From an uncultured Candidatus Saccharibacteria bacterium (lineage in GTDB: Bacteria; Patescibacteriota; JAUYIX01; CAYMIK01): DNA of 64,000 bases. Under the pieces are notes generated by a model. The model was not told the DNA's origin. It saw only the letters and a program-made list of their open reading frames with translations, and made no database searches. How positions within the stretch are numbered: the stretch's first letter is position 1; every line of letters begins with the position of its first letter. Of this stretch, positions 7,442-39,106 are shown in pieces. Where the stretch lies: NCBI GenBank assembly GCA_964390745.1, contig CAYMIK010000002.1:26866-90865 (forward strand). Reading direction: 5' to 3'. The position numbers were made by a program, and so were the translations under genes.

Positions 7442-7453
7442 TCGGGAGGATGT

Positions 7454-8674: not shown

Positions 8675-8716
8675 AGCCTTTTCTTGGGAGTTGCTTGAAA
8701 CCAGAAAGCGCGTGTC

Positions 8717-8745
8717 TTGACAAAACACATAAAAAACGTTAGAGT
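8717..8745 (+). promoter_or_regulatory. Sigma70-like promoter TTGACA-17-TAGAGT
   Basis: ttgaca at 8717-8722, 17-nt spacer, tagagt at 8740-8745, about 22 nt upstream of the ATG at 8767. Confidence 0.45.
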
Positions 8746-8766
8746 TGGTTGTCAGAAAGAAACTCT

Positions 8767-9639: not shown

Positions 9640-9659
9640 GTTGTTCGCGCAGAAGAAGC

Positions 9660-11114
9660 CTAGCGAATATTTCGTAGGTGTTTTTGGTTTTGGAGCACAT
9701 GGAAGATGCTTCCAAACATCGCAAGGAGAATCCAGTACAGCGTTGTGTTTTGGTAGAGATTATCAAAAAAACTCACGAACATCATGCCTAATGTCTCAGC
9801 GAGAATAAGGTACACAAGTACTCGCTCCTTTTGTGACGAGGCTCTTTTGAGATATAAGATAACCTCCGAAGAAAGCATTGCGAAAAAACCAATGAACGCG
9901 GCAAGGCCTGCGACCCCAAGTTCTACAAGAAGCTTCAGGTAGTCGTTGTGCGCATCAAACGATGTGTTGATTTCGTTTTCAGCAAACTGAATAAAGGTTC
10001 CGCCGCCGTAGCCTTTCAGAAGATGTTCTTGTGCGGGTCCGAGAATAGCATTCCAAAACTGGAATCTCCAGGTAACAGAGGTATCGGGGTTTAATTGGGC
10101 TGTTTGTAAAAGCCTTGAGACGATCGATATTTGAGTTGGTTGAAATGACGTATAGGCCTGCAGGAAAAGCCCAAGGGCGACTACGGCAAAAAGAGTGCCA
10201 AATGCCAACACCGTGAGTCGTGCAAAGTGTTCACGAAAGAAAACTATACTCAAAAGAGCTACGCCAATTACCGCGTAACCCCAGCCAGCACGCGAGAACG
10301 TAAAGACCAGCAAAAATCCGTAAAAGAGAAACAGCACGCCGTAGGTTCGTTTATACAACGGAAAAAGAACCATGAGTGCCAGAGCAAGAATCATCAGGGC
10401 TGCAAGGTAGTGGCCAAAGAGTGATGGGTGAGCAAAGGTTCCGAGAATTCGATTGCTGCTGGCTTCATCGGCGAGACCTGTTTTGGTAATGAGCTGATAC
10501 AAACCAATCACCACGGGGGAGATGGAAGAAGCAAAGATGGCCGTAGTTATCGTGCGCACGTCGTGCAGATTTTTGGTGAATTCAAAGCCAAGCAAAAAGA
10601 TAACAACGTAGCTTGCAATACGTATGGTTTCGCCAAAAACGGTTATTGGATCGCGGGTAAAAATAATTGAAGCAAGTGTTGCCAAAACCAAAAGAGCGAG
10701 TGGATAAAAAACAGGAATGCGGAAAACGCGCGTACGTTTGTACAAAAGATAAAATATGCCCCAGCCAACAACGAAGATTCCAAAGATCGCATTGAGGTTA
10801 ATAATGAGAACATTTTGAATATTGAATGAAACGCGCTGTCCCAGCATGTCGATGAGCGGACGCGCAATAAGAAGGGCGATAAATCCAGCTTTTGGGCGCA
10901 CCACAAAAAGTGGCGCAATGAGTACCACGGCAAATGCTGACAAGATCTTTAAGATGTCAGCGTTGACTATAATGAGCACGGTGGCAACGATAGTTCCCAG
11001 AAGAACCAGCATTGCCGCAAAAAATTGTGACTGGCGCGTGGTAAGGCTTTGTGACACTAGATTCTTTTTACAGATAACGTATAATGCGGATATGAGGATT
11101 TTGCATGCCAACAA
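9660..11114 (-). CDS. O-antigen ligase / Wzy-type polysaccharide polymerase (Wzy_C)
   Basis: FTFSRAGWGYAVIGVALL and DAHNDYLKLLVELGVAGL motifs, with 10-12 TM helices. Confidence 0.75.
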   Translation of the reverse strand: MLACKILISALYVICKKNLVSQSLTTRQSQFFAAMLVLLGTIVATVLIIVNADILKILSAFAVVLIAPLFVVRPKAGFIALLIARPLIDMLGQRVSFNIQNVLIINLNAIFGIFVVGWGIFYLLYKRTRVFRIPVFYPLALLVLATLASIIFTRDPITVFGETIRIASYVVIFLLGFEFTKNLHDVRTITTAIFASSISPVVIGLYQLITKTGLADEASSNRILGTFAHPSLFGHYLAALMILALALMVLFPLYKRTYGVLFLFYGFLLVFTFSRAGWGYAVIGVALLSIVFFREHFARLTVLAFGTLFAVVALGLFLQAYTSFQPTQISIVSRLLQTAQLNPDTSVTWRFQFWNAILGPAQEHLLKGYGGGTFIQFAENEINTSFDAHNDYLKLLVELGVAGLAAFIGFFAMLSSEVILYLKRASSQKERVLVYLILAETLGMMFVSFFDNLYQNTTLYWILLAMFGSIFHVLQNQKHLRNIR

Positions 11115-12324
11115 GTTTTATTTTCCAAAGCGGGGAGCGGACCGCATCTTTTTTAATTTGACCGAACTCTTAGAAAGGCACGGCCACGAAGTGATTCCGT
11201 TCTCCATGCAGCACCCAAAAAATCTGAAGTCAAATTTTAGAGAATATTTCGTAAGCCAGGTGCACTTTGAAAATCCTACTACCATTATAGAGAAATTTCG
11301 CGTCTTGGGAAGGATGATGTACTCATTTGAAGCGCGCCGTAAACTTTCAGCGCTTCTCGATGCGTATCCGTGTGATATTGCACACCTCGAAACCATCTAT
11401 CATCAGATCTCACCTTCCATTTTGAGCGTCATGAAAAAACGTGGTATGCCGATTGTTATGACTGTTCACGACTACAAGCTCATGTGCCCAAACTACAAAA
11501 TGTACACGCAAGACGCGGTGTGTGAGCGATGCTTCAAGCACAAGTACTACAATGCCGTAACGCATAAGTGTATCCAAAATAGTAGCATTGCTTCGGTGCC
11601 CGTGATGCTTGAAATGTACTTCCACAAAATCATGAAGTTTTACGAACGATACGTTGACGTCTTCTTGGCATCGAGCGAGTTCATGAAGAACAAGTTGGTT
11701 CAGTGGGGTTTTGACGAGAAAAAAGTGCTTGTTTTGAACAACTTTATTGACACCTCATTTTTTACGGCTGGCAAACAGGACCAGGGCTACTTCTTATTCT
11801 CTGGTGGACTTGAAGTTGAGAAGGGCGTTCTTACTATTGCGCGAGCAGTGAAGAAGTCTAAGAAGCTCCGCGTTGTTTTTACGGGTACGGGTAACCTTGA
11901 AAAGTATCTGCATGAATTCGTTGAGAAGAATAGCTTGCATCATCAGATTGAGTTTCGAGGATTTGTTGAGCGCGAAGAAACGCGACGACTCCTTCAGAAC
12001 TGCACTGCGCTCTTGGCACCCTCTGAGTGGTACGATAACAACCCACTCACTATCATTGAAGCAACGGCCTGTGGCAAGCCAGTTATTGGTACGGAAATAG
12101 GTGGGATTCCTGAGTTGATTGAAGATGGGAAAACGGGATTCGTTATCAAGCCCGGTGACCATATTGCACTTGCATCGCTCATGGAACGTTTGGCGATGAA
12201 TCACTCCGAAGCCGCTGCAATGGGCCGAAGAGCACTTCGAAACTCCACGCGATTTTCGCCCGAAAAGCACTACAACGCCGTTATGTCGGTCTATAACGAT
12301 CTCTTGGCCAAGAAGGCTACGTAA
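11092..12324 (+). CDS. Glycosyltransferase family 4 (GT-B fold)
   Basis: MRILHANKFYFPKRGADRIF N-terminus. C-terminal EWYDNNPLTIIEATACGKPVIGTEIGGIPELIEDGKTGF (E-x7-E GT4 motif). The ORF-track start at 10822 is an antisense-overlap artefact. Confidence 0.85.
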   Translation: MRILHANKFYFPKRGADRIFFNLTELLERHGHEVIPFSMQHPKNLKSNFREYFVSQVHFENPTTIIEKFRVLGRMMYSFEARRKLSALLDAYPCDIAHLETIYHQISPSILSVMKKRGMPIVMTVHDYKLMCPNYKMYTQDAVCERCFKHKYYNAVTHKCIQNSSIASVPVMLEMYFHKIMKFYERYVDVFLASSEFMKNKLVQWGFDEKKVLVLNNFIDTSFFTAGKQDQGYFLFSGGLEVEKGVLTIARAVKKSKKLRVVFTGTGNLEKYLHEFVEKNSLHHQIEFRGFVEREETRRLLQNCTALLAPSEWYDNNPLTIIEATACGKPVIGTEIGGIPELIEDGKTGFVIKPGDHIALASLMERLAMNHSEAAAMGRRALRNSTRFSPEKHYNAVMSVYNDLLAKKAT

Positions 12325-12355
12325 GCGCTTCACGGGGCATTTTTAGGGCACGGTC

Positions 12356-12384
12356 TTGACAAAAACTCCATAGTACTGTATTCT
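12356..12384 (+). promoter_or_regulatory. Sigma70-like promoter TTGACA-17-TATTCT
   Basis: ttgaca at 12356-12361, 17-nt spacer, tattct at 12379-12384, upstream of the GT4 gene at 12438. Confidence 0.4.
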
Positions 12385-12437
12385 ACATGGCTTTCTCTCG
12401 AACTCGCCTCATTATTTGAATTTCTCCCAAACCTTGT

Positions 12438-13586
12438 ATGAAAATCGCTTTTATAGGCCAAAAAGGAATACCAGCAACTTACGGTGGCATTGAACGCTAC
12501 GTAGAGGAGCTTTCAACGCGACTTGCTGATCGTGGCCACGCGGTGTGGGTATATGTTCGAAACTACTACACGCCAGGAACCGACACGATCTACAAAGGTG
12601 TGTATCTTGTTCGAATTCCTACCATCCGCTCAAAGCACTTGGACACCCTTGTGCATGTATTTTTGAGTACGCTCGACCTTATTCGTCGAGATGTAGATAT
12701 TATCTATGTTCATGCGGTTGGTCCTTCGGCGCTGATTCCGTTGATGCGACTTTTGAAGCCGAGGGCGAAAGTTATTTCCGTGTTTCAATCGCGCGATGAT
12801 CTCCATGCGAAATGGGGAAGGTTTGCACGGTTCTGTTTGCGAATTGGAACCTGGTTTGCATGTAAGATGCCACACGCAACAGTTACGAGCAGCAAGATTC
12901 TTCACCAGTATGCCATGGAAAAATATCATGCTGACACCGTTCAGATTTATAACGGCGCACCGTCACCAAAAGAACTGCATGGCAATGAAATGGAACAAAA
13001 ACTTGGAATTACCCAGGGTTCGTATTTCTTGATGGTCACTCGATTTGTTCGACACAAGAACATTCACAAAGTTATTCGTGCGTTTAAGAACCTGAAAACC
13101 GACAAGAAGCTTGTTATTGCGGGCGGTGCGGTGTATACGGATAAGTACTACCAAGAGATTCAGGAACTCGCAAAGGGTGACGACCGTATTATTTTGCCAG
13201 GTGTTGTCTCGGGAAACAATTTGTGGGAACTCTATCAAAAGGCATATGCCTTCGTTCAGGCTTCTGGAAGTGAAGGTATGCCACTTGCCGTTTTGGAAGC
13301 TATGTCCTTTGGATGTGGAATTATCGCGAGTGATATTAAAGAGCACTACGAAGTTCTCGAAGAAGCTGCGCTCTACTTTGATGTAAACAGCGTTAGTGAA
13401 CTTACGGCATTGATGGGCCTGGCACTCACGCAGCCACAATCATTGTTTGAAAAAGGAACATTGGCTCGACAACGTGCACGAAACGTCTTTAGCTGGGAAC
13501 GAATTACGGATCAGGTTGAATGGCTTTTTGAAACCGTCATCAACGATCCAGAATCTGTAAAAGTCTTCTCAGAGAAGATTCGATAA
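12438..13586 (+). CDS. Glycosyltransferase family 4
   Basis: MKIAFIGQKGIPATYGGIERYVEEL N-terminus. C-terminal ASGSEGMPLAVLEAMSFGCGIIASD. Confidence 0.85.
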   Translation: MKIAFIGQKGIPATYGGIERYVEELSTRLADRGHAVWVYVRNYYTPGTDTIYKGVYLVRIPTIRSKHLDTLVHVFLSTLDLIRRDVDIIYVHAVGPSALIPLMRLLKPRAKVISVFQSRDDLHAKWGRFARFCLRIGTWFACKMPHATVTSSKILHQYAMEKYHADTVQIYNGAPSPKELHGNEMEQKLGITQGSYFLMVTRFVRHKNIHKVIRAFKNLKTDKKLVIAGGAVYTDKYYQEIQELAKGDDRIILPGVVSGNNLWELYQKAYAFVQASGSEGMPLAVLEAMSFGCGIIASDIKEHYEVLEEAALYFDVNSVSELTALMGLALTQPQSLFEKGTLARQRARNVFSWERITDQVEWLFETVINDPESVKVFSEKIR

Positions 13587-13600
13587 TAGAACTGATGCAT

Positions 13601-13627
13601 AAAACTGGCGCACAAGCGCCAGTTTTA
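13601..13627. terminator. Bidirectional intrinsic terminator between convergent genes
   Basis: aaaactggcgc-acaa-gcgccagtttt is a perfect 7-bp GC-rich stem flanked by an A-run and a T-run. It abuts the stop of the 1314-aa gene. Confidence 0.7.
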
Positions 13628-13629
13628 TT

Positions 13630-16600
13630 TTAGTAGTAGTCTGTAATTTGAACGCCGGTGTAGTAGTGCTGCAAGATTTGCGTGTAACTTCGGCCTTCGT
13701 TGGCTTGTTGTAGTGCGCCGTATCCCGAGAGGCCTACGCCGTGGCCATTCATTGGGCCAGGACTTGACCAGTGATCATCAACGGAAACGAGGTAAGGGTA
13801 TGCACCGGGAGTTCCGCCCCAGACTTCTTGGTAGCTTCTGGTTCTGCCATCACTTCGAGAGAAGTATGGAGTCAGCGCAATGGCACTGCGATAGGTAACC
13901 ATCTGGCCCTTTGTCTCATTTACTGCCTGAACGATGTGAGGCGAGCGTGATTCAAGACCATAGCCTTTGTACACCTGATCGCCAGAAGTGTTGTTGAGGT
14001 CAAAGTGTTCGTTTGCGTGCTTGCCACCGCGTTGAACATTGTAGTACGCGTACGTTCGTTCCGCGACGGACATGGTCTTGAGGTGTGTGTAGGTAGTGCT
14101 ATCACTTTGTTCGGCGATACCTTTGAGGTAGTCTTCCATCTTAAGTTCGTTGATTGCCCAGAAGTTTCCCGTAGAGCCACTTCGCCATGCCAATATGTTT
14201 CCTCGGAAGGTGTTGTCATCAAGTGACGTGTTGAAGCCTGGATGGTCGTGGTAGTTATAAACCTTCAGGATAGTGCCCGTGTTTGGAATAAAACGAACAT
14301 AGTCGGTGGTGGTAACATTTACACCCGGTCCCGCCAAGCGATAATAACTATTTCCACCTTCAACGGTAACAGTTGCAACGTTGCCTGATGCAAATGTACC
14401 CAAAAGTGAACCATCGCCACCTTTCACGGCACGGAATGCGCCATTTCCGGAAACCTGTACCTGTGATAACGCGGCAATACCAATCTTTATTGTGGGCTCA
14501 GAAAGGGTAGAGCGAACATGAATACGAATCGTTCCGGTTGACGATGGCATCCAGGCAACACCTTGTGCGGTCAGCTTGAACTGTTCAGTATAGTCACCGG
14601 TAGTGTCAGGAGCTTGCAGATAGAAGGTGAATGTTCCCGTGGCGTTTGGTGCAACGGAGGTTGAGTCCATCACTGTAGGACGGTAGTAAGCTGGCCAACT
14701 GCTGTCTTCAAAAGTTGAGTGTCGGTTTGCTGGGTTGGTGGTTTGGAGTGAAACGTAGGCATCGCCCGTATTACTCCAGGTTCGTGTGCCGGTATTTTTG
14801 TAGTTGAAAGTAAACGATGTTCGGCTTCCAGGTGAAACGGTGATCTCCGTTGCTGTCTGGCTGGTAACTTGGCCGTTGTATCGTGGAGTTACGGTAATGT
14901 AGAAGTTCGTTGTCGTACTCAAGACCGTTTGACCGGCAGACTTCATATAGAAGCTTTCGGTATAACTGCCCACCATTTGATCTGGCGTATTGAGCCTGAA
15001 ATTGAATGTTGCCGAAGCACCTGGCACGACATCGTGATCAAGAATATCAACGGCACCCGCAGGCCACGTGATATCTTGGAATGGTGAAACGCGTCCGCCA
15101 GGAGCGGTATATAAACCATCGCCGGCATGCCAAGTCTCAGAACCAATATTTTTTATCGTCAAAGAGAGGTCGCGGGAAGCGTGATCTTCCATGATAATAG
15201 TTTCAGGAGACTTTGCGGTAATCTGTCCTTCATATGGATTCAAGGCGCGTACGGTCAGGTCAAAGCTTGTTCCCGCAATCCACGTAACATTTTCAGCAAC
15301 CGCTTGGAAGTATTCTTTGTAGGTCCCAGCAGTTTTTGGTGCCTTGATGGTGAAATCAAATTCACCAACTTGGCCTGGGCGAACCTCCGCTGTTGTCATG
15401 CGGCCCGGTCGGTAGGGGTATTCTGTCCAGGTGGCGGGATCTTTGATGGCGGAATTCTTCCCTGGAGGGTTGTTGACGTTCAAGGCAATAAAATTGCTTC
15501 CGCTGTTTTTCCAGGTTGCGCTTCCGGTATTCTTAATTCGAGCCGTAATCTCTTGTGTTTCGTTGACGTCGAGCGTTGGCCCTGGGGTAACAGAAACCAC
15601 CTCACCCTTGTATGGGCCAATAACATTCACGTGAAGTGTAAAGTGACTGCCGGTAATCCACGTAATGCCTTCCGAAACGGCCTGGAAGCCTTCGTTGTAG
15701 ACCTTGGTAGTGGTTGGTGCTTTCAGTATAAATTTAAAGTAACCCCATTCGCCCGGATTCAACGTGTCGGGACTGCTCAAGAGCGTTGGGCGATACGAAA
15801 GAGGCCAGCTTGCGCTGTCATAAAATGCCGAGCTTCTGCCCGCGGGATCTTGCAAGTTTAGGGCAACGAAGTTTGGTCCTGTTTTTGTCCATGCTCGAGT
15901 TCCGATATTTTTCATCCAGATAGCGACGGTGGTTTTTTGCCCGGGCGCAACGTCAATATTTCCGTCACCAGGAAGTTCGTCAATTTGAGCTTTGTAGCGA
16001 AGACTTACGTGAACGTGCAGTGTAAATTGGCTGCCATCAATCCAGGTGAGGCCGGATGCCACGAGTTTGAAAGTTTCATCGTAATCTGCTTCGAGGCCAC
16101 GTGAATCGCGCATCACAAAACTAAACGTTCCAATGCCTCCCGGTGGCACCGATGCTTCTTTGAGTTTGGCTGGGCGATACGATGCGAGCCAGCTGGAATC
16201 GTAGAAAACGGAGTTTCTATTTGCGGGGTCGGCTGTTTGTAAGACAACCGCATTGGGGCCTGAGTTGCTCCACAGTGCGTCACCGGTATTTTTGATCTTT
16301 ACGGTTACGGTGTGCCAGTTTTTATCCTCGAGGTTGACAAGGTCGGGGACACTGTTCAATTCGGCGGCGTACGGGTTGTAGTCTCCATGAGGTGTTGCGT
16401 TTATTGCAGCTTGTGCACCGTTTCGAATTTCCGCTACATCAGCATAAAGATCCGTTCCTGGACACGAGGTGTAGTCAACGTCACGATGTCCGATGACGCC
16501 TGGCATATTTCGATCAACAAAGTAGCTGACGGTTGTTGGATTAATATTGTTTTGAATTCCCTTGTACCCAATAAAATTGATGAGGGCATTTTTTGTCGCA

Positions 16601-17574
16601 GTAGTTACTGTGTCGTTGTCATAGTTTCCAAGGACAGATATGCCAATAGAACCAGGGTTGTAACTCACAGAGCTTCCGCCCGATTCTGTTCGGAGAGCGT
16701 GTGCGCCAATAACGCCGTTGCCACCATAGCGCCCTTCGTAAATATTTCCATGCTCGTCTGCGACGTAGTTGTAACCAATATCTCCCCAGCCACGTGTAAC
16801 GGCATGGTATCGATAAATCCCACGAATGACTGATGCTGGATCGCTTCCACCCTGAGCACCAGCAGTGTGATGGATGATAAACTTTTTAGGTGCGGAGTAT
16901 TGTGGTGTCCAGTCCATGATGGATTCATCAGCGCCCCACTCGGCACGGCTAATAACCCGCGGAGTCGTTACTGCGCCCTTTGTCTGTATAGAGCTGAAAT
17001 TCATTTGCGGACCTGGGCGAGAGTCGAGGTAGTGTGCCTGAATATCTGAAACGATAGGAGTAACGGCTTGATTGCTCGTTGAAAGCACTGCCTTGATAGC
17101 AAAACTTGTTGCACCGCTGCTGACAAAATTTAACTCGCTAAAGTGTTCCTTGGTATCTGGATCTTGCATGTCTTCGTTTTCTGGAAGCGGAAGCCAGTTG
17201 CTTGTCACACCATTTGCGGTGGTCTGCATATAAAAGCTTGCATGTGTTCCTTGCGGCTGATCAATCTTCCATGTAACGGCAAGTGCGTTAAAGTTGTAAT
17301 CTGCTTGCACTTGACCAGTGGTAAATTCATGACTTTGTTCAAATGCAGACCCATTTTTTGAAAGTTGCAGCGTCGTGTTTGTGGCTCGCGTGCTGATGCC
17401 CGAGCTCGAAGATCCACCGAAACCCAAAGAGACGTCACTCACGGAGTTGTTCTGCGGTGCGAGCGCAGCTTTTGCGGTATTGGCAAAATGAAAATTTCCT
17501 GCCAATGGAAGCATGGCAAGAATGGCAACGATACCAACGAGAGAGTATTTTGTTTTTTCGCTCCAAACTTTCAT
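13630..17574 (-). CDS. Secreted modular peptidoglycan hydrolase: signal peptide + N-acetylmuramoyl-L-alanine amidase (Amidase_2/PGRP) + 5-6 tandem Ig-like repeats + C-terminal SpoIID/LytB domain
   Basis: N-terminal LVGIVAILAMLPLAG signal. Amidase_2 region (AEWGADESIMDW...FIIHHTAG...GWGDIGYNYVAD...HRDVDYTSCPG). Repeats of ~115-130 aa each carry W.N.G...P..R.S.F.DSSW...YRP. The C-terminus matches SpoIID (ERTYAYYNV...YKGYG...GHGVGLSGYGA). Confidence 0.85.
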   Translation of the reverse strand: MKVWSEKTKYSLVGIVAILAMLPLAGNFHFANTAKAALAPQNNSVSDVSLGFGGSSSSGISTRATNTTLQLSKNGSAFEQSHEFTTGQVQADYNFNALAVTWKIDQPQGTHASFYMQTTANGVTSNWLPLPENEDMQDPDTKEHFSELNFVSSGATSFAIKAVLSTSNQAVTPIVSDIQAHYLDSRPGPQMNFSSIQTKGAVTTPRVISRAEWGADESIMDWTPQYSAPKKFIIHHTAGAQGGSDPASVIRGIYRYHAVTRGWGDIGYNYVADEHGNIYEGRYGGNGVIGAHALRTESGGSSVSYNPGSIGISVLGNYDNDTVTTATKNALINFIGYKGIQNNINPTTVSYFVDRNMPGVIGHRDVDYTSCPGTDLYADVAEIRNGAQAAINATPHGDYNPYAAELNSVPDLVNLEDKNWHTVTVKIKNTGDALWSNSGPNAVVLQTADPANRNSVFYDSSWLASYRPAKLKEASVPPGGIGTFSFVMRDSRGLEADYDETFKLVASGLTWIDGSQFTLHVHVSLRYKAQIDELPGDGNIDVAPGQKTTVAIWMKNIGTRAWTKTGPNFVALNLQDPAGRSSAFYDSASWPLSYRPTLLSSPDTLNPGEWGYFKFILKAPTTTKVYNEGFQAVSEGITWITGSHFTLHVNVIGPYKGEVVSVTPGPTLDVNETQEITARIKNTGSATWKNSGSNFIALNVNNPPGKNSAIKDPATWTEYPYRPGRMTTAEVRPGQVGEFDFTIKAPKTAGTYKEYFQAVAENVTWIAGTSFDLTVRALNPYEGQITAKSPETIIMEDHASRDLSLTIKNIGSETWHAGDGLYTAPGGRVSPFQDITWPAGAVDILDHDVVPGASATFNFRLNTPDQMVGSYTESFYMKSAGQTVLSTTTNFYITVTPRYNGQVTSQTATEITVSPGSRTSFTFNYKNTGTRTWSNTGDAYVSLQTTNPANRHSTFEDSSWPAYYRPTVMDSTSVAPNATGTFTFYLQAPDTTGDYTEQFKLTAQGVAWMPSSTGTIRIHVRSTLSEPTIKIGIAALSQVQVSGNGAFRAVKGGDGSLLGTFASGNVATVTVEGGNSYYRLAGPGVNVTTTDYVRFIPNTGTILKVYNYHDHPGFNTSLDDNTFRGNILAWRSGSTGNFWAINELKMEDYLKGIAEQSDSTTYTHLKTMSVAERTYAYYNVQRGGKHANEHFDLNNTSGDQVYKGYGLESRSPHIVQAVNETKGQMVTYRSAIALTPYFSRSDGRTRSYQEVWGGTPGAYPYLVSVDDHWSSPGPMNGHGVGLSGYGALQQANEGRSYTQILQHYYTGVQITDYY
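14400..16330 (-). repeat. Intragenic tandem repeats, period ~350-390 nt (5-6 copies), encoding the Ig-like modules
   Basis: Plus-strand landmarks ccggtattt at ~14797, ~15150, ~15517, ~15907 and ~16287. The corresponding protein repeats are ~30-40% identical. Confidence 0.6.
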
Positions 17575-17717
17575 TTTTGAGACTTTTGTTATTGACCATC
17601 AAGAAAACAGGTCGGTAGCAGCATTTCCCTTTGAATCAACCTTGACGCCAAGAATTGTGAGTTTTATTTGTGCATGTTATAATCAGTGCTGCTACGAGCT
17701 GAAATACACAAACAAAA

Positions 17718-20120
17718 TTGTCACGAATCAATACTTGTAAAAAACTTCTTGCGTCTATACTTATTATATTCGAAATAGGTTTTTTTTCAATAGGTTTTGA
17801 GGCGGCAGCTTCGACACAAACTGTGGAAAAAGTCAATGCAGCAGCTGGCACCAATAATTACATAAACAATGAAGTGATAGTAGAGCTTAAAGACCCGAAA
17901 GAGTCTGTCTCTTCAGCTTCGAACACTATATTTACTCAAGTAGTCTCGGGATTTCGACCTATTGCTATGAATGTTCAGCGCGAAACGCATATTCGAAAGA
18001 ATCGTGGCGCGCGATTCTTGTTGCAGATTGCAGACGGAACGGACCCCCAGGTTGTTGCAAAGAAGCTTTTGAATCGTCCAGGTGTTCTTTCTGCTTCACC
18101 GAATTTTATTTACCACACGGCACAAACATCAAACGATACGAACTTTGCACTCAAGGATGATTTATACAATACCGGAAGTAACTCTGGGAGAACGAGTGAG
18201 ACGAAGGATGCCGACATTGATGCCGAAATTGCGTGGAATACCACAAAGGGCGCGGGGAGTGTGATTGCGGTCATTGATACGGGAGTGCAACTCACGCACC
18301 CAGATCTTGATGGCAATCTGTGGACCAACCCCGACGAGCCTTCAAATGATAACGCTGATGCACCTGACGGAAATACTTTTATTGGCGACACTAATGGCTG
18401 GGACTTCGTTTCGCATGACAATAATCCGAACCCAGCACCTTCGGGTGCAGAAACAGGCCACGGAACACACGTTGCTGGTATTGCAGCTGCAGAAGTGAAT
18501 AACTCTGCGGGCATTGCTGGCGTTGCGCCAGAGGCAAAGATTATGGTGCTTCGGGCTTTTGATGGAAACGGAAGTGCGACAAGTGATGATGTCATTGCTG
18601 CCATTGATTATGCTATTCAAAATGATGCAAATGTTATCAATATGAGCTTTGCAACGGGACCAGGGGAGTACGACACGAGTTTCGATGCACCCTTGCAAGA
18701 TGCGTACAACAACAATATTGTTCCCGTAGCAGCGGCGGGGAACGACAATATTGATCTCAACAGTCAAAGAGTCTCGCCTGTAACGAATGACTGCGGTTCA
18801 ACGGATTGCGTCATCGGTGTTGCAGCCACGTCCAACGCAGACTATATGGCCTCGTACTCAAACTTTTCAAGTGGCGCAAACAAGTATGTTGATGTTTCAG
18901 CCCCGGGTGGTGTAACAGTATCGAGTCGTGCGATTTATTCCACCCTGCCGGGCTCAACCTATGGATACGAGGCTGGAACATCAATGGCGACACCGCAAGT
19001 AACCGGACTGGTTGCGCTTTTGCATGCAACAAACCCTTCTCTGACGGCCTCACAGATTATTTCACAGATTCGCAACAACACTGACCCCGCAAATTCTTCC
19101 AACATTGGTACTGGTCGAATCAATGCCGCGCATGCGGTGAATAACAGCATCATGAGCCGATTCGATGCGAGTGGAGGAAATCATTACAGCATCTCGAATC
19201 AGGTGAGCCAGATGCGGTTCCCACAAGATGGCACGGCAACTTCAGTGTTGATCGCTTCTGGGACAAATTTCCCCGATGCCTTGGCTGGTGGTGGTTTGGC
19301 GAAATCAAAAACGGCGCCACTTATTTTAACGAGTCCGAGTGGACTTAGCTCTTCTTCTCTTACAGAGATTCAGCGAGCGCTTTCGAATTCAACGAAGAAA
19401 ATTTATATACTTGGTGGCACGAGTGCTGTCTCTTCAAACATCGAGACGCAACTTTCTAATGTCGGCTACGCCAACACTGAACGAGTCGCGGGAGACGATA
19501 GGGTAGACACGGCAATTGCCATAGCGAACATCACAAATCCTTCAACCACCTCATACGCATTTGTGGTCAATAAAGATAATTTCCCCGATGGACTTGCGGC
19601 ATCGGCCATCTCTGCGGCCAAGGGAATACCAGTGTTAGTGAATGGCGCGGGCTCGCTTGATGCAAGAAATTCCAGTTGGCTCACAGCACACCATGTTTCG
19701 CGCGTTTTTGTTGTGGGCGGAACAAGTGTTGTGACCGATACCGTAAAAAATCAAATAGGTGCTTTGGGTATTTCGGTAACACGGCTCGCTGGTGCTGATA
19801 GATATGCCACGAGCTATGAAGTTGCGCGATGTTTTTATTCGACTTCGGCAACATCGGTGTGCAATGGTGTTGTGAGTTCGCGGGCTAAACCAAAACAGGT
19901 AGGATATGCAACAGGCATCTACTTTCAGGATGCACTAACTGCTGGGCCGTACATGGGGTACTATGCTGGGCCGGTTCTGCTGGTCTCATCGTCTGTTTCA
20001 AGTTCTGTGACGAGTTACGATGCCATGATTCAGGGAACAGCACGCGATGGATTTGTTTTTGGAACTACTTCGAATGTCTCGCCGTCTGTTTTGAGTACGC
20101 TTGCAGCGCAGTTGAAGTAA
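17718..20120 (+). CDS. Subtilisin-like serine protease (peptidase S8) with three C-terminal CW_binding_2 cell-wall-binding repeats
   Basis: Catalytic triad contexts VIAVIDTG (Asp), GHGTHVAG (His), GTSMATP (Ser). N-terminal signal/TM. C-terminus has three repeats of the FPDALAGG...PLILTS / FPDGLAAS...PVLVN / FQDALTAG...PVLLVS type. Confidence 0.9.
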   Translation: MSRINTCKKLLASILIIFEIGFFSIGFEAAASTQTVEKVNAAAGTNNYINNEVIVELKDPKESVSSASNTIFTQVVSGFRPIAMNVQRETHIRKNRGARFLLQIADGTDPQVVAKKLLNRPGVLSASPNFIYHTAQTSNDTNFALKDDLYNTGSNSGRTSETKDADIDAEIAWNTTKGAGSVIAVIDTGVQLTHPDLDGNLWTNPDEPSNDNADAPDGNTFIGDTNGWDFVSHDNNPNPAPSGAETGHGTHVAGIAAAEVNNSAGIAGVAPEAKIMVLRAFDGNGSATSDDVIAAIDYAIQNDANVINMSFATGPGEYDTSFDAPLQDAYNNNIVPVAAAGNDNIDLNSQRVSPVTNDCGSTDCVIGVAATSNADYMASYSNFSSGANKYVDVSAPGGVTVSSRAIYSTLPGSTYGYEAGTSMATPQVTGLVALLHATNPSLTASQIISQIRNNTDPANSSNIGTGRINAAHAVNNSIMSRFDASGGNHYSISNQVSQMRFPQDGTATSVLIASGTNFPDALAGGGLAKSKTAPLILTSPSGLSSSSLTEIQRALSNSTKKIYILGGTSAVSSNIETQLSNVGYANTERVAGDDRVDTAIAIANITNPSTTSYAFVVNKDNFPDGLAASAISAAKGIPVLVNGAGSLDARNSSWLTAHHVSRVFVVGGTSVVTDTVKNQIGALGISVTRLAGADRYATSYEVARCFYSTSATSVCNGVVSSRAKPKQVGYATGIYFQDALTAGPYMGYYAGPVLLVSSSVSSSVTSYDAMIQGTARDGFVFGTTSNVSPSVLSTLAAQLK

Positions 20121-20162
20121 GATTGTGTGTGGCAGGGTGGGGTTGTGTCATACAAAAATTCG

Positions 20163-20191
20163 TTGACAATTTGCCCATTTTCGCGTATGTA
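20163..20191 (+). promoter_or_regulatory. Sigma70-like promoter TTGACA-17-TATGTA
   Basis: ttgaca at 20163-20168, 17-nt spacer, tatgta at 20186-20191, upstream of the flippase/GT gene string. Confidence 0.4.
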
Positions 20192-20217
20192 TAGGGAGTT
20201 AACTTTGAATACATTTC

Positions 20218-21561
20218 ATGAGTGAACAGCACAAAACAACCTTTGGAAGTCAGGTGATTGAGCGTGTTTTTGTCGACGGATCCACGCTGGTGGGAATGTC
20301 ACTCATTAATATTCTTATTGCGCGGTCACTCGGGGCTTCAGGAAAGGGCGCTATTGCTTTGGCGATGCTCATTGCCAATATTATTTTTGTATTTTCATCG
20401 TTTGGCGTTCATCAGGCAAATAACTATTTCCGTGGTCGCAGAAATCATTCGCCAAGCGCACTGTACACAAACGCCATTATTTTTTCGATACTTATTTCGT
20501 TGGTTGCCGGTGGAATATTCTTACTGGTGTACCCAATGCTGGCTGATCGGTTCTTTTCTGGACTTCCCGTAAGATTTATTTTGCTTGCGTTGACTATTCT
20601 GCCCTTCTTGCATATTCAATCGAGCTTCACGAATTTTTTGCTCATTGAAAAAAAGCTTCGTTATTATAATGCCGTAAGTATTCTTAAAGTAGTTGTTCAG
20701 GTTGTATTGGTATATGTATTCTTGTTTCCGTTGCAACTTGGAACGTACTCGGTTGTGGCTGCATGGATTGTTGCGCAGGCATTCTTGGGAATTCTCACGG
20801 TCTATAAAACATGGCGCGCGCAAGACGCCAAGCTTTTGTTTCACTTTGCACTTTTGAAAGAAACCTTTTTGTTTGGCTTGCGCGGCTACTTTGGAAACTT
20901 TATTTATTTTATCAACCAGCGACTCGATCTCATTATGGTGAGTTTCTTTTTGCCACTCGCCGATGTTGGCGTGTATTCGGTAGCCTCAGCTTTGAGTGAA
21001 ATCTTGCTGCAACTTCCAGGATCTGTTACAACCATTTTGTTTCCACGAGTGGCGGCTACCACCGACGAGGATTCGAATCAATTTACGCCGCGTATCTTTC
21101 GAAACATGATCGTGATTATGATCCTTTTGGGCTTGGGCCTGGCGGTGTTTGGTCACCTCGTTATTTCCTTTTTCTTTGGTCCTGAATTTGAGCGAGGAAT
21201 TACGCCACTCTATGTTATGATTCCGGGTGTAGCGTTCATAGGGGCGGCAACGGTTTTAGGAAACGATCTTTCCGCGCGAGGTCGTCTCGAAGTTCATAGC
21301 TATATCGCGGGCATTGGATTGGTGCTCGATGTTGTTCTGAATATTCTTCTTATTCCACATTTTGGCTTGCTGGGTGCTGCGCTTGGCTCGACGCTGTCGT
21401 ACACGCTCATTGCTCTTGCGCTCATTGTCGCCTTCCGTGTTATTACAAAAGTCTCGTTTCGCGATATGCTTATTTTGAAGAAAAGTGATCTGGTGTATTA
21501 CGCCCGACTTCTTCACAAACTCCATCTTTTACCCGAATCAGTTGTTCAGAAACTCACATGA
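20218..21561 (+). CDS. wzx: Wzx-type polysaccharide flippase (MOP superfamily polysaccharide biosynthesis protein)
   Basis: About 12-14 TM helices and N-terminal GxSxxG-like segments typical of PF01943. It sits at the head of a glycosyltransferase operon. Confidence 0.75.
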   Translation: MSEQHKTTFGSQVIERVFVDGSTLVGMSLINILIARSLGASGKGAIALAMLIANIIFVFSSFGVHQANNYFRGRRNHSPSALYTNAIIFSILISLVAGGIFLLVYPMLADRFFSGLPVRFILLALTILPFLHIQSSFTNFLLIEKKLRYYNAVSILKVVVQVVLVYVFLFPLQLGTYSVVAAWIVAQAFLGILTVYKTWRAQDAKLLFHFALLKETFLFGLRGYFGNFIYFINQRLDLIMVSFFLPLADVGVYSVASALSEILLQLPGSVTTILFPRVAATTDEDSNQFTPRIFRNMIVIMILLGLGLAVFGHLVISFFFGPEFERGITPLYVMIPGVAFIGAATVLGNDLSARGRLEVHSYIAGIGLVLDVVLNILLIPHFGLLGAALGSTLSYTLIALALIVAFRVITKVSFRDMLILKKSDLVYYARLLHKLHLLPESVVQKLT

Positions 21562-22646
21562 AAAAGATTACCTTTCTTGCCGATGCCGGAAATGCACACA
21601 TGCAGCGATGGCTGACGGCTCTTTCGAAAGATTTTGAAATTCAGGTTGTGACCCAATCGTTGGATACAAACGTTCCAAAGAACGTTCAGCAGATTCACTA
21701 CAACATTCAGTTTTCAAGAAACCCTCTTTTGCGGCCGCTGCAGATTCTCCGGCAAAACCGAAAGATCCGAAAAGCTATTGCGGCATTTTCGCCAGATATT
21801 TTGCATGTGCATTATGCGTTAGCGCACTCCATCGCCTACGCACTACCAAAAAATATTACTACGGTAGTTTCATTGTGGGGTTCGGATATCGTGCCACTTC
21901 CGGGAAAAAATTTTTCCGACCAAGACTTCGCATACCTCGACTTATATCTTTCGAGAGCTACGCGTATTACGGTTACGAGCTCGTTTCTTGCGACCTACTT
22001 TACCAAGTTGTTTCGCGATACGTACCAAAAACCCACCGTCATTCCGTTTGGAATTGACACGGGGCTCTATGCTCCGATGCGCCGAACCAAGAATGTAGGG
22101 AAACCCGTTGTTGTGGGATTTGCACGGCAGTTCTATTCGCACTATGGATTTATGGATCTTTTGCAAGCTTCCGCGCCACTTTGCAAAGAAAACTTGCTAA
22201 CACTCAGGGTTGCGGGAAGTGGCGAAGAAGAGAATTTGTACAAAGCTGCCGTTGCCAAATTGGGTCTCCAGCATGCGGTTAAGTTTGTGGGGCGGATAGA
22301 AAACGCCTTTGAAATGCCAAAATTTTATGCATCGATAGACATTTTTGCGAATCCATCACACCGCGAATCATTTGGCGTTGCGGCGCTTGAAGCCGAATCG
22401 TGCGAAGTTCCGGTGGTTGCCGCAAAGACGGGCGGAATTCCGGAAACCGTAAAAAACGGCGAGACGGGAATTTTGTACCAAGTTGGAGATATTGAAGAGC
22501 TGCGTGCTGCATTGAAGAAATTGGCTGAAGACTCAAAACTTCGAGAAAGCATGGGGAGGGCTGGAAGAAAGTTTGTTCAGGAAACCTATGAGTGGCAAAA
22601 AAATGTTGAAGCTATGAAACAGGTCTACGAAGATGTCACAAAATAA
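21558..22646 (+). CDS. Glycosyltransferase family 4
   Basis: SHRESFGVAALEAESCEVPVVAAKTGGIPETVKNGETGILY (E-x7-E). 4-nt overlap with wzx. Confidence 0.85.
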   Translation: MKKITFLADAGNAHMQRWLTALSKDFEIQVVTQSLDTNVPKNVQQIHYNIQFSRNPLLRPLQILRQNRKIRKAIAAFSPDILHVHYALAHSIAYALPKNITTVVSLWGSDIVPLPGKNFSDQDFAYLDLYLSRATRITVTSSFLATYFTKLFRDTYQKPTVIPFGIDTGLYAPMRRTKNVGKPVVVGFARQFYSHYGFMDLLQASAPLCKENLLTLRVAGSGEEENLYKAAVAKLGLQHAVKFVGRIENAFEMPKFYASIDIFANPSHRESFGVAALEAESCEVPVVAAKTGGIPETVKNGETGILYQVGDIEELRAALKKLAEDSKLRESMGRAGRKFVQETYEWQKNVEAMKQVYEDVTK

Positions 22647-23967
22647 TAAAAAAGTTTTAGTTGTAGCATATTTCTTCCCACCTATGGGTGGTGGAGGAGT
22701 GCAGCGTACGGTGAAATTTGTAAAGTACCTGCGAGATTTTGGGTATGAGCCGGTTGTTTTAACCGTAAAGTCTGGCCAGCACACGGTTTTTGATGCATCG
22801 CTTTCACGCGATATTCCTAAAGGCGTTCGAATTATTCGAACCAACTACTTTGGGTTGTTTTTTGGTGGCAGTGAGGCAAAATCAAAAGAACGACTCTCGA
22901 GCCTTACAAAGAAATCAGATGAAGTAGCTCAAAAAACTTTTTCATGGAAGTCGTTGCTGCGAGCACCGTACCACTTTGTTGAACGAATGTTTCTTGTTCC
23001 TGACATTCAAACTTTTTGGCGAGGCTCTGCATACCGAAAGGCTATAAAGGTACTTCGAAAGGAACATTTTGATCTGATCTACTCAACTTCATCACCATAT
23101 ACCTCACATCTTATTGCGCGTGATTTACATCGCGAAACAAAAATTCCTTGGGTAGCGGACTTCCGTGACCACTGGACGCTTGGCCCAATGTATCAGCCGG
23201 CCAGCTTTGTTCATCAATGGATTGATCGTTCATATGAACGTTCTATTTTGCGCGAAGCGAGTGGTGTAGTTTTTAATACCGAACGAAATCAGAAGGATAT
23301 CGATCAATTCTTCCCAGAAATCTATCGCAAAGCTTGTGCTATTCACAACGGGTTTGATTCCGAAGATATTCACGAGACGGCGTATTACCACGAAGATGAG
23401 ATTAAGTGCTTTTTCCCTGCATCATTTTATGGCAAAGTAAACTCTCCAGAGAAATTTTTGAAAGCATTGGAAATAGTATCCAAAAAAGTTCCCAACATAA
23501 GTCTTTCTATCGCGGGTGATATTGATGCTACGAATCGTCACATGATTGAGTCTTCGCCGCTGTATGGAAAAAATATTTTCCTCCAGGGTTGGATTGCGCA
23601 CAGCGAAGTGACAAAATTTACAACAGCCGCAACATTTTTATTACTCTTCGTTCCGCCGCTTACGCGCGCTGCTTCGTGGGTGCCGCAAAAACTTTATGAA
23701 TATCTTGCTTCTGGCCGACCCATTTTTGCACTCGCACCAAAGAATGGGGAAGCGACAGAGATTATCGAGAAAACACAGACCGGTTATACCGTTTCGTCTG
23801 ATTTGAGCGTAGAAGATACCGCAAAAGAACTCTTGAAGTTTCTCGAGGGGCTTAAGGCCAAAAACTGGCAGCAGCGTGCGAACAAAGATGAAGTGGGAAA
23901 ATTTACCCGAAAAAATTTAACGAAAAAACTCGCGGAATTCTTTGATGAGGTTGTAGATGAAGCTTGA
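22633..23967 (+). CDS. GT-B fold glycosyltransferase (GT4-like), diverged
   Basis: N-terminus VLVVAYFFPPMGGGGVQRTVKFVKYL is typical of Glyco_trans_4-like N-terminal domains. Overlaps the upstream GT. Confidence 0.6.
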   Translation: MSQNNKKVLVVAYFFPPMGGGGVQRTVKFVKYLRDFGYEPVVLTVKSGQHTVFDASLSRDIPKGVRIIRTNYFGLFFGGSEAKSKERLSSLTKKSDEVAQKTFSWKSLLRAPYHFVERMFLVPDIQTFWRGSAYRKAIKVLRKEHFDLIYSTSSPYTSHLIARDLHRETKIPWVADFRDHWTLGPMYQPASFVHQWIDRSYERSILREASGVVFNTERNQKDIDQFFPEIYRKACAIHNGFDSEDIHETAYYHEDEIKCFFPASFYGKVNSPEKFLKALEIVSKKVPNISLSIAGDIDATNRHMIESSPLYGKNIFLQGWIAHSEVTKFTTAATFLLLFVPPLTRAASWVPQKLYEYLASGRPIFALAPKNGEATEIIEKTQTGYTVSSDLSVEDTAKELLKFLEGLKAKNWQQRANKDEVGKFTRKNLTKKLAEFFDEVVDEA

Positions 23968-25135
23968 AAATACTGCTATTGTGTATTTCTCGCCACTCAA
24001 CTGGCACGACAACTGGCAACGTCAGCAAGAGTTTGCGTCGCGCATGGCGGAAAAGAATTTTGTTTTGTTTGTCACGCCGATGGGCTTAATAAACTATAGC
24101 GTTTTGGGTGTCTTCAAAAAGGCATTCCTTCAACTCTTTGGTTTCAAAAAAGGTGGGCAACGGGAAACACAGAACGAAGTGCCAGAGAACATTCATTTTG
24201 TTACCTTACTTTTTCTTCCGCGACACAATAATAGGTTTTTTGAATCAATCAATACGAAGCTGCTTCTCTGGCAAATCCGAAAAAAACTCCGCGCCCTTGG
24301 GGCACAAGAAAAGAAATTAGTCTTTTGGACAGGAAACCCGGTTCGAACTATTAGTAACCTCATTCGGCCACTTGACCCGGAATGTGTTATTTACGACAAC
24401 GCGATGCGTTTTGAAAAACTTGAAAATGCACCTCGCTATACACTCGAACATGAAGAGGTGCTCGTGAAAAAGTGTGACTTTGTGGTAACCGATAACGACT
24501 TTAAAAAGAATCAGTTCGAACAATGGGGTGCAAGGGTTTATAAGATTCCTCAGGCCGTGAATCTTGCTCAGTTTGATGTAAATAAAACGTATGAGATCCC
24601 AGAAAATCTCGTGGGTGTGCAGCACCCAATTGTTGGTTATTATGGCGTGCTTCGCGAGGTGGTAGACTTTGAGCTTCTTCAGTATGTTGCCAAAAAACTC
24701 CCCAGTGTTTCATTCGTATTCATGGGCAATGTGTGGGATCAAGAGAACATTGAAAAACTGAAGGAAAACACAAATGTTCACGTGCTGCCTGCCGTTCCAC
24801 ATAGCCAGCTTCCTTCGTATCTTGCGCATTTCGATGTTGCTCTCATCCCATATATCGTCAATGACTATACACAAGGAACATTTCCGAATAAGCTCTTTGA
24901 ATACTTTTCTTTTTTGAAACCAGTGGTCGCCGAGCCTTTGCCAGAGTTTGAGTATTACAAGGATTTTATGTATCTTTCGAGTGACAAGGATGTTTTTGCG
25001 TCCCATATCGAAGAGGCAATTCAAAAAGGTACGAAAAACAAGGAAAAACTTCAAGCTTTGGTATATCGAAATACATGGGAAAAACGATTTGAAGCGCTTC
25101 AAGAAGCTTTCGAACAAACAAAGGGGAGAAAATAA
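23957..25135 (+). CDS. GT-B fold glycosyltransferase (group 1, TuaH-like)
   Basis: N-terminus IVYFSPLNWHDNWQRQQEFASRMA. C-terminal EGTFPNKLFEYFSFLKPVV region. Confidence 0.6.
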   Translation: MKLENTAIVYFSPLNWHDNWQRQQEFASRMAEKNFVLFVTPMGLINYSVLGVFKKAFLQLFGFKKGGQRETQNEVPENIHFVTLLFLPRHNNRFFESINTKLLLWQIRKKLRALGAQEKKLVFWTGNPVRTISNLIRPLDPECVIYDNAMRFEKLENAPRYTLEHEEVLVKKCDFVVTDNDFKKNQFEQWGARVYKIPQAVNLAQFDVNKTYEIPENLVGVQHPIVGYYGVLREVVDFELLQYVAKKLPSVSFVFMGNVWDQENIEKLKENTNVHVLPAVPHSQLPSYLAHFDVALIPYIVNDYTQGTFPNKLFEYFSFLKPVVAEPLPEFEYYKDFMYLSSDKDVFASHIEEAIQKGTKNKEKLQALVYRNTWEKRFEALQEAFEQTKGRK

Positions 25136-26310: not shown

Positions 26311-26347
26311 TAAAATCAATCACGTATGGCATAATTTTTCCGAACAT

Positions 26348-37717: not shown

Positions 37718-37718
<1 letters not shown>
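37311..37718 (-). CDS. atpC: F1 ATP synthase epsilon subunit
   Basis: LQFTVVTQEKTVY...GEITILPHH, at the operon end after atpD. Confidence 0.85.

Positions 37719-39106
<1,388 letters not shown>

Follow-up and report, generated by a model that had tools for sequence, protein, structure and literature searches.

A conserved divergent gene pair in Patescibacteria: a subtilisin with three CWB2 repeats beside a two-enzyme peptidoglycan hydrolase

Introduction

In Clostridioides difficile, three copies of the cell-wall-binding repeat 2 (CWB2) together with an ILL motif are needed for anchoring to the wall polysaccharide PSII, and the PSII locus adjoins the cwp genes (PMC4973711). One of the CWB2-anchored enzymes, the protease Cwp84, is encoded beside the polymer locus and matures the surface protein SlpA (PMC4973711). 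C. difficile SpoIID requires its residue E101 and cuts the glycan only after an amidase has denuded it (PMC6221140). Wall hydrolases can themselves be targets of proteases, as CspB cleaves pro-SleC (PMC3567191) and WprA and Epr degrade LytE and CwlO (PMC3817527). At the level of regulation, excludons, which are overlapping divergent transcription units with mutually exclusive expression, are described for Listeria and others (PMC3377988, PMC12288877). Here, we analyse a 64-kb stretch of chromosomal DNA (the window) from a bacterium of the Patescibacteria (Candidate Phyla Radiation, CPR), in which features reminiscent of these systems meet in one divergent gene pair: a plus-strand gene for a subtilisin of peptidase family S8 with three C-terminal CWB2 repeats, and a minus-strand gene for a large peptidoglycan hydrolase with a signal peptide.

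The envelope biology of Patescibacteria is almost unstudied, and in the literature searched we found no report linking CWB2 or SpoIID-type enzymes to this group, although all families involved and both domain architectures are already known in public databases. We read the pair, with a probability of roughly 0.6, as a conserved envelope module of a CPR lineage, in which a polymer-anchored protease is encoded beside a two-enzyme hydrolase and both serve the remodelling of the cell's own wall.

Results

An S8 protease with a CWB2 trimer

An earlier note on this DNA had described an S8 subtilisin with three CW_binding_2 repeats and had taken these repeats for an anchoring module of S-layer and wall proteins. 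The domain calls are borne out, and CWB2 is indeed a module for anchoring to wall polymers. Three stretches match Pfam CW_binding_2 (PF04122; E 5.1e-44; 149 bits, where 24.9 is the cut-off), and residues 485-762 match C. difficile Cwp8 by sequence (5j6q, E 1.6e-29). Each repeat carries a P[ILV][ILV][ILV] motif (PLIL at 534, PVLV at 638 and PVLL at 752). The AlphaFold model reaches a predicted local distance difference test (pLDDT) score of about 85-95 over residues 480-800, and a Foldseek search with the CWB2 part of the model returned the high-molecular-weight (HMW) subunit of SlpA as the best match (9f8e_B, E 6.7e-20), besides Cwp8 (5j6q, root mean square deviation 2.3 Å over 340 columns) and Cwp6 (5j72). 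According to this model, the three repeats would pack as a trimer like those of Cwp8, SlpA and Cwp6.

The catalytic domain is recognized by Pfam Peptidase_S8 (residues 178-462, E 2.4e-52), and neither the triad D187/H248/S422 nor the oxyanion residue N342 varies among 14 aligned S8-CWB2 proteins. For the preceding Fervidolysin/I9-like propeptide, the support from sequence is weak (PF22148 at residues 37-129, 22.7 bits against a cut-off of 21); the segment is modelled as β-α-β (pLDDT 80-90) with fold matches to unprocessed pro-subtilisins. The TTG start at 17718, followed by an MSR(K/I) leader that is basic and then hydrophobic, is kept in the window and in two related loci (L001 and L084).

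Some further features of this gene deserve mention. Public gene calls shorten the protein: the NCBI product P0001 (765 amino acids) starts at a GTG at codon 36, and several Logan calls start within the signal peptide. Since these starts lie downstream of the TTG, the deposited annotations miss the export signal of the protease. Between the catalytic Asp and His, relatives conserve an acidic DDDGNG(F/Y)(V/I)DD loop, which we take to resemble a calcium-binding loop; in the window protein it is degenerate (DAPDGNTFIGD; 18300-18420, residues ~195-235), and this segment has the lowest model confidence. There is no terminator 3' of the gene. The wzx gene follows directly across a 97-bp gap (20121-20217), which contains a TTGACA-17-TATGTA promoter-like site (20163-20191).

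A hydrolase that combines amidase and SpoIID/LytB domains

The label of a wall hydrolase, given to the minus-strand product in the earlier note, is confirmed by its hydrolase domains but is incomplete, as the protein is a fusion of two enzymes, Amidase_2 and SpoIID/LytB. Pfam places Amidase_2 at residues 227-373 (E 4e-13), and the predicted zinc ligands, namely an HHT motif at 235-237 (H235 or H236), H363 and C371, are invariant in 40 homologues. The C-terminal region exceeds the cut-offs of both SpoIID-type models that describe the wider family, i) the SpoIID Pfam model PF08486 (57.6 bits against 23, E 2e-15) and ii) the SpoIID/LytB model TIGR02669 (117.5 bits against 83.3). In an alignment with C. 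difficile SpoIID (5txu, full-length numbering), its residue E1155 corresponds to the catalytic E101, and this Glu is nearly invariant in homologues. The five immunoglobulin (Ig)-like repeats that separate the two domains may act as a spacer or as a glycan-binding array. For the N-terminal β-sandwich (residues 44-184) there was no Pfam match and the fold matches were weak and of the jelly-roll or carbohydrate-binding-module type; judged from its model, this domain is probably carbohydrate-binding.

More than 1000 homologues share this architecture, and most of those with a name belong to Patescibacteria or Peregrinibacteria. Among the 120 homologues listed, all have the amidase domain and nearly all have all three Pfam domains. 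The earlier note had regarded both proteins as wall-targeted; of the two, only the protease carries an anchoring module, and the hydrolase has a signal peptide and no CWB2. Its gene is followed by a bidirectional intrinsic terminator, which is located between the stop of the upstream glycosyltransferase family 4 (GT4) gene (13586) and the hydrolase stop (13630) and closes both units; therefore the hydrolase gene is monocistronic. No SpoIIP or SpoIIM gene was seen among the window genes scanned.

Conservation of the pair and of its surroundings

The two open reading frames, their strands and the 143-bp gap between them are as given in the earlier note, and the pair is found as divergent neighbours in eight distinct loci, the window included. 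Identity of the S8 protein to that of the window is ~59-60% in L001 (L002 is from the same population), ~58-59% in L084, ~44-45% in L003, 47% in L085, 37% in L089 and 33% in L091, and the hydrolase of L093 is 34% identical. In L089 the contig ends within the upstream gene, which is 37.5% identical to the hydrolase over ~900 residues. L091 and L093 have no detectable DNA similarity to each other, and their flanks are rearranged. With repeats that match CW_binding_2 and genes that stay adjacent in relatives, even at S8 identities down to 33% and hydrolase identities down to 34%, the core of the earlier description stands. As a negative control, we used 80 generic S8 loci from many phyla, none of which has CWB2 or the hydrolase within 10 kb. 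These unrelated loci were among the matches listed in a scan of a genome collection with patterns back-translated from the S8-CWB2 alignment, and the patterns proved to be generic S8 motifs.

The S8-CWB2 gene lies within a polysaccharide locus in all eight loci with informative flanks. Besides, a CWB2 protein is encoded immediately 3' of the protease in the loci of seven relatives, often with a 4-bp overlap. In L001, L084, L003, L085 and L089 it is an Amidase_2-CWB2 protein of 650-684 amino acids, and in L091 and L093 a CWB2-only protein of ~348 amino acids. The 64-kb window holds neither a copy nor a remnant of the Amidase_2-CWB2 gene, as tblastn matched only the amidase domain of the hydrolase and the CWB2 region of the protease, and it contains no S-layer candidate or other CWB2 protein. 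The most consistent partner of the protease is thus the polysaccharide locus, usually together with the downstream CWB2 protein, and not the hydrolase.

Wherever a locus encodes a SpoIID module, one or more Amidase_2 modules are encoded there as well. In L085 (1562-3832), the hydrolase is only 756 amino acids long and consists of Ig repeats and SpoIID, without β-sandwich and without amidase; here, the amidase is found only on the neighbouring CWB2 protein and is 57% identical to the amidase domain of the window. The amidase module thus seems to shift from one of these two proteins to the other, and this complementarity, which is seen in the single locus L085, fits the logic of an amidase acting before a transglycosylase.

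Promoters in the divergent region

The TATAAT that had been noted at about 17675 is located at 17678-17683 and belongs to a candidate S8 promoter. A TG-extended TATAAT lies 34-43 nt before the S8 start in the window, L001, L084 and L003, and L089 has a TATAAT without TG at 23 nt. In the 7 kb scanned, we found 10 promoter-like sites compared with 8.6 expected from shuffles. The E-values of the domain matches lie far outside what chance would give; the S8 site alone does not, and it gets its weight because it is conserved in relatives. On the other strand, an intact hydrolase promoter motif, TTGAC[AG]-17-TGnTACA[AC]T, precedes the ATG by 33-40 nt in L001, L085 and L091 and by 80 nt in L089. For L093 the promoter scan was uninformative. 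Taken from these motifs, the two genes would be separate transcription units with back-to-back promoters.

A 9-bp perfect inverted repeat (17615-17623 / 17687-17695; GTAGCAGCA / TGCTGCTAC) was considered as an operator and dismissed: it occurs in 4% of shuffles, is unconserved in relatives and probably arose by chance. It brackets the S8 promoter and overlaps both the degenerate hydrolase -10 element and the predicted S8 transcription start.

Shine-Dalgarno-like motifs precede only ~14 of the 37 open reading frames of the window, and neither gene of the pair has one. In several frames, the start codon is preceded at a distance of 6-10 nt by a TATAAT/TACAAT-like hexamer, for example upstream of 5088 (+), 45330 (-), 48096 (-) and 56686 (-). 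This pattern suggests that leaderless or Shine-Dalgarno-independent initiation may be frequent in the genome.

An antisense promoter-like site within the signal-peptide codons

The best σ70-like match of the 7-kb region (11 of 12 positions) is an antisense site inside the S8 gene, directed towards the hydrolase. It is kept with the same 16-nt spacing in five loci (window, L001, L084, L003 and L085) and is absent from L089 and L091. Hexamers and spacing do not change among these loci, in contrast to the spacer sequence and its encoded peptide, which vary. Its -10 hexamer is the reverse complement of ATT-ATA, which encodes Ile-Ile. ATA is the rarest Ile codon (~10%) and ATT-ATA is used in only 2 of 27 Ile-Ile pairs of the window genes, yet it is found in all five loci. 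Upon synonymous resampling, a score of at least 11 had a probability of 0.004-0.015 per locus in four loci, and the background was 0.4% of 150-nt windows. Moreover, the loci without a proximal hydrolase promoter (window, L084 and L003) all have the antisense site, and those without the antisense site (L089 and L091) have a proximal promoter.

If the site is active, the hydrolase leader would run antisense across the start codon, the 5' untranslated region and the promoter of the S8 gene, with an overlap of ~65 nt. A structured RNA leader or riboswitch was also considered and rejected, because there was no Rfam match and the predicted leader (about 180-197 nt) folds no better than shuffles (z = 0.44).

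The window and its polysaccharide locus

The window is chromosomal and contains genes for F-type ATP synthase, CTP synthase, Lgt, a pseudouridine synthase and ribosomal proteins. Its AtpD has its named relatives within the Patescibacteria (Moranbacteria, Falkowbacteria and Magasanikbacteria; 76-83% identity), which identifies the organism as a member of this group. The pair is embedded in a Wzx/Wzy-type surface-polysaccharide locus with the order Wzy, HtrA, Wzz, Wzy, two GT4, the pair, Wzx, four GT4, GT2 and DUF4012, followed by an S41 protease. Coordinates are compiled in Table 1.

Two further observations concern the composition of this locus. It has two Wzy-type polymerase/ligase paralogues (5825-7441, plus strand, and 9660-11114, minus strand), and it is flanked by two envelope proteases, one HtrA-type (7454-8674) and one S41/CtpB-like (29151-30359). 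Neither tRNA genes nor Rfam matches were found in the window. An origin from a prophage or lysis cassette was rejected, as the flanks are chromosomal polysaccharide and ATP-synthase genes and tRNAs are lacking. A hypervariable surface island was suggested by the contrast between AtpD (99% identity to a relative) and the pair (58-59%). This idea was dropped, since identity is 75-89% for other housekeeping genes of this contig and 48-72% for the genes of the locus, and AtpD is simply slow-evolving. In detail, AtpD (37718-39091, minus strand) is 99% identical to that of the relative L086, PyrG and AtpG are 89%, the S41, L9 and methyltransferase genes 75-78% and the surface-locus genes 48-72% identical, which illustrates how badly a single marker can overstate relatedness.

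Table 1. Features of the gene pair, its locus and the corresponding downstream genes of relatives. Positions refer to the window unless a related locus is named.
Feature	Position	Strand	Basis
Wzx/Wzy-type surface-polysaccharide locus around the pair	5825..29138		Pfam; matching context in L001, L003, L084, L085, L090, L091, L093
Bidirectional intrinsic terminator (AAAACTGGCGC-ACAA-GCGCCAGTTTT)	13601..13626		Read directly from sequence
Gene for putative secreted bifunctional peptidoglycan hydrolase, 1314 amino acids	13630..17574	-	Open reading frame; Pfam and NCBIfam; homologues
SpoIID/LytB lytic-transglycosylase region, residues ~1029-1314 (Pfam core 1136-1228)	13633..14490	-	TIGR02669; alignments to 4rwr, 5i1t, 5txu
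Five tandem NBR1-type Ig-like repeats, residues ~413-1020, each with KN[TI]G...W motif	14515..16338	-	Pfam N_BRCA1_IG (E 7e-20); repeat mapping
Amidase_2/peptidoglycan recognition protein (PGRP)-type N-acetylmuramoyl-L-alanine amidase domain, residues 195-385	16420..16992	-	Pfam; PDB PGRP sequence matches; fold match to catalytic PGRP-LB
N-terminal β-sandwich	17023..17445	-	AlphaFold pLDDT ~95; conserved in homologues
Signal peptide or N-terminal anchor, residues 1-36; hydrophobic core 10-27; putative AKA^A cleavage	17467..17574	-	Hydrophobicity scan; helix 6-24 in model
143-bp divergent intergenic region	17575..17717		Open reading frame positions
Degenerate remnant of proximal hydrolase promoter, TTGATT-16-TGC-TACCGA	17612..17639	-	Promoter scan of seven intergenic regions; aligned sequences
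Candidate S8 promoter, TTGTGA-17-TG-extended TATAAT	17655..17683	+	Promoter scan, relatives' sequences; 34 nt before TTG start
Pre-pro-subtilisin gene, 800 amino acids, C-terminal CWB2 trimer; TTG start	17718..20120	+	Open reading frame; Pfam; alignment
S8 signal peptide, residues 1-31, ...EAAA^S	17718..17810	+	K/R-rich then hydrophobic segment after conserved TTG
Antisense σ70-like site TTGAAA-16-TATAAT, 11/12, S8 codons 16-25	17763..17790	-	Best σ70-like match in 7-kb region
Fervidolysin/I9-like propeptide, residues 37-133	17826..18116	+	Pfam PF22148; fold
S8 catalytic domain, residues 167-475	18216..19142	+	Pfam; alignment; PDB matches to thermitase, Ak.1 protease
Three CWB2 repeats, residues ~484-583, 589-685, 689-800	19167..20117	+	Pfam, PDB sequence match, motif, AlphaFold, fold search
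Amidase_2-CWB2 gene, L001	12382..14391		
Amidase_2-CWB2 gene, L084	12469..14487		
Amidase_2-CWB2 gene, L003	12490..14442		
Amidase_2-CWB2 gene, L085	6614..8605		
Amidase_2-CWB2 gene, L089	5555..7609		

Discussion

Besides the domain content of the two proteins, our data allow a picture of how the pair might work. The remodelling of the cell's own wall is a more economical explanation than an attack on a foreign envelope, and the activities that follow we infer from conserved domains and residues. In the hydrolase, the zinc amidase of Amidase_2/PGRP type most likely removes stem peptides, and the SpoIID/LytB-type domain, held at a distance by the five Ig-like repeats, most likely then cuts the bared glycan. 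The pre-pro-subtilisin would be exported and process its own propeptide, and its CWB2 trimer would hold the protease non-covalently on the cell's own wall via a secondary wall polymer. By analogy with the anionic polymer (AP) locus of C. difficile, which adjoins the cwp genes, this polymer is probably made by the surrounding genes, and the polysaccharide locus is the presumed source of the CWB2 ligand. From the gene neighbourhood and from precedent, the most likely task of the anchored protease is the maturation or turnover of wall proteins, among them the neighbouring hydrolase or hydrolases, and its action might keep wall cutting in check during growth and division. The best candidate for the hydrolase promoter in this genome falls within the 75 nt at the 5' end of the protease gene, so that the transcripts of the two genes may overlap in a head-to-head manner.

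Several of our results weigh against this reading of the pair as a module. The S8-CWB2 gene of L090 directly follows Wzy-GT4-GT4 without a hydrolase, and the hydrolase of L092 stands alone among ribosomal and housekeeping genes; therefore protease and hydrolase are not obligate partners. The numbers are unequal, too, with more than 1000 homologues of the hydrolase against roughly a dozen close relatives of the S8-CWB2 protein. Most of the loci with the pair come from a single, extensively syntenic lineage; the association is lineage-restricted, and common descent may account for part of the adjacency. An LCP-type ligase was not seen in the window. Concerning the enzymology, the SpoIID/LytB domain is not an orthologue of SpoIID, because it scores 82 bits with the SpoIID equivalog model TIGR02870, far under the cut-off of 234.75, and is ~85 residues shorter than characterised sporulation SpoIID. 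At the level of regulation, the proximal hydrolase promoter of the window is degenerate, and a k-mer comparison of seven intergenic regions found promoter and leader elements but no shared operator. Of the single control region that the earlier note had proposed, a compact divergent region with a candidate antisense overlap is left, but the promoters are separate. The antisense site, finally, is largely accounted for by a conserved peptide and one rare codon, and the signal peptides are homologous. Recodings that keep the peptide and ATT-ATA would yield the -35 match in ~20% of cases (7% in L085).

Some of these points suit the view that the two genes are neighbours only, with the protease serving the polysaccharide genes and the downstream CWB2 proteins and the hydrolase being a housekeeping autolysin, both independent envelope genes in a syntenic locus. 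The separate occurrences in L090 and L092 and the high synteny of the whole locus within the lineage are what it would predict, and so are the monocistronic hydrolase gene with its own terminator, its own canonical promoter in four relatives, and the 4-bp overlap of the S8 gene with the downstream Amidase_2-CWB2 gene in relatives, which points to an operon with the opposite orientation. It has difficulty, however, in accounting for the fact that the pair persists in L091 and L093, where identity is 33-34%, the flanks are rearranged and mutual DNA similarity is lacking, for the complementary distribution of the amidase module between hydrolase and CWB2 protein, and for promoter-like elements that are conserved on both strands of a compact region, and we regard it as doubtful. 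The protease could also be a surface-layer maturation enzyme in the manner of Cwp84, with a major CWB2-anchored surface or S-layer protein encoded elsewhere, rather than the hydrolase, as its substrate. The position of Cwp84 beside its polymer locus, the CWB2-only protein directly after the S8 gene in L091 and L093, and SlpA as the closest fold of the CWB2 model agree with such a role. Since the window lacks any candidate substrate of this kind, Cwp84 is a cysteine protease and not of the S8 family, and the downstream CWB2 protein is an amidase and not a structural protein in five relatives, this explanation seems rather improbable. Still less probable, in our opinion, is an offensive toolkit, in which amidase/lytic transglycosylase and surface protease breach or remodel the envelope of a host at the contact site. 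Its appeal comes from the organism, a member of the Patescibacteria, whose cultivated members are all reported to be episymbionts (PMC11623550), and from the hydrolase, which is large, secreted and very common in the phylum and carries additional binding-type domains, namely the β-sandwich and the Ig-like repeats. Against this, in the one system that has been characterised, the CWB2 tether attaches to the wall polymer of the producer itself (PMC4973711), and the pair resides within a biosynthetic locus for the cell's own surface polymer. There are no secretion-system, toxin or immunity genes nearby, amidases and SpoIID-type enzymes are classic enzymes of self-wall remodelling, and the organism has no known host.

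A separate question is the antisense site. It is the only hint of a regulatory entanglement of the two genes, suggestive but confounded, and on the sequence comparison we give roughly even odds to a real distal hydrolase promoter. The other half of the balance is held by the view that the site is a by-product of coding for a conserved I-I...[F][S/T/A]-M stretch of the signal peptide, where the rare ATA would be favoured because it slows translation for export, and the hydrolase of this genome would be transcribed from a weak intergenic promoter. Rare codons are enriched in signal peptides. The homologous peptides, the recoding frequencies given above, the lack of enrichment of promoter-like sites in the region and the absence of the antisense site from L089 and L091 are in line with a coding by-product. 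On the other side stand the unconditional resampling, the repeated use of a rare codon pair in all five loci, hexamers and spacing that are fixed while the spacer and its peptide vary, and the converse occurrence of proximal and antisense sites. A bolder extension of the remodelling module, a Clostridium-like CWB2 anchoring system with an excludon-like toggle, would place the hydrolase promoter within the signal-peptide codons of the protease and make wall cutting and its proteolytic restraint mutually exclusive. We consider this unlikely. If true, it would provide a first handle on the control of autolysis, and possibly on contact with the host wall, in ultrasmall CPR cells; overlapping promoters, if real, would already offer a simple regulatory logic that separates autolysis from its proteolytic control.

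For the remodelling module itself, the locus provides a testable picture of a Patescibacteria envelope, in which a Wzx/Wzy polymer locus also encodes CWB2-anchored enzymes and the proposed sequence of amidase and then lytic transglycosylase is combined in one chain. In comparison with known regulatory systems, the pair would resemble an excludon if 17763-17790 (minus strand) is a promoter, as the hydrolase leader would then overlap the 5' end of the S8 gene; some relatives differ by having a proximal, non-overlapping hydrolase promoter instead. With CspB and with WprA/Epr, our protease shares the S8 family and, as predicted, the wall compartment, and here it is encoded beside one or two hydrolases. 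Those proteases, in contrast, are not CWB2-anchored, the matches of the window S8 protein to the CspBA/CspC models are weak and generic, and cleavage of a hydrolase is something we infer. The hydrolase is comparable to the SpoIID-SpoIIP (DMP) machinery of Bacillus and Clostridioides sporulation in combining an amidase with a SpoIID-type lytic transglycosylase that retains the catalytic Glu, and in L085 the two activities would even reside on two proteins, as they do in DMP, where SpoIIP and SpoIID share out this two-step chemistry. It differs in that the window protein has both putative activities in one secreted chain with five Ig-like domains between them, that the amidase is of the Amidase_2/PGRP type and not of the SpoIIP family, that no SpoIIM was seen among the genes scanned, and that the organism is not a spore former. 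By analogy, the hydrolase may work like DMP without being a member of it.

The closest analogue at the level of the whole system is the Cwp family of C. difficile (Cwp84, Cwp6, Cwp8 and SlpA) together with its AP/PSII locus. The two systems belong to different phyla, as ours is found in Patescibacteria and not in Firmicutes. Our protease is an S8 serine subtilase with a propeptide, whereas Cwp84 is a C1 cysteine protease. An S-layer gene is not part of the window, and both the wall polymer and the binding of CWB2 to it are putative here. The Cwp6 amidase is of the Amidase_3 family, and the CWB2 amidase of our relatives is of the Amidase_2 family. Nevertheless, the likeness extends over several levels: three CWB2 repeats with PILL-type motifs and the same modelled trimer fold, enzymes that are fused to this trimer (the protease in the window, the amidase in relatives), and CWB2 genes beside, or here even inside, a wall-polysaccharide locus with glycosyltransferases and a MurJ/Wzx-type flippase. 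Should the product of this locus prove to be the ligand of CWB2, the paradigm of protein anchoring known from C. difficile would reach into a very distant phylum.

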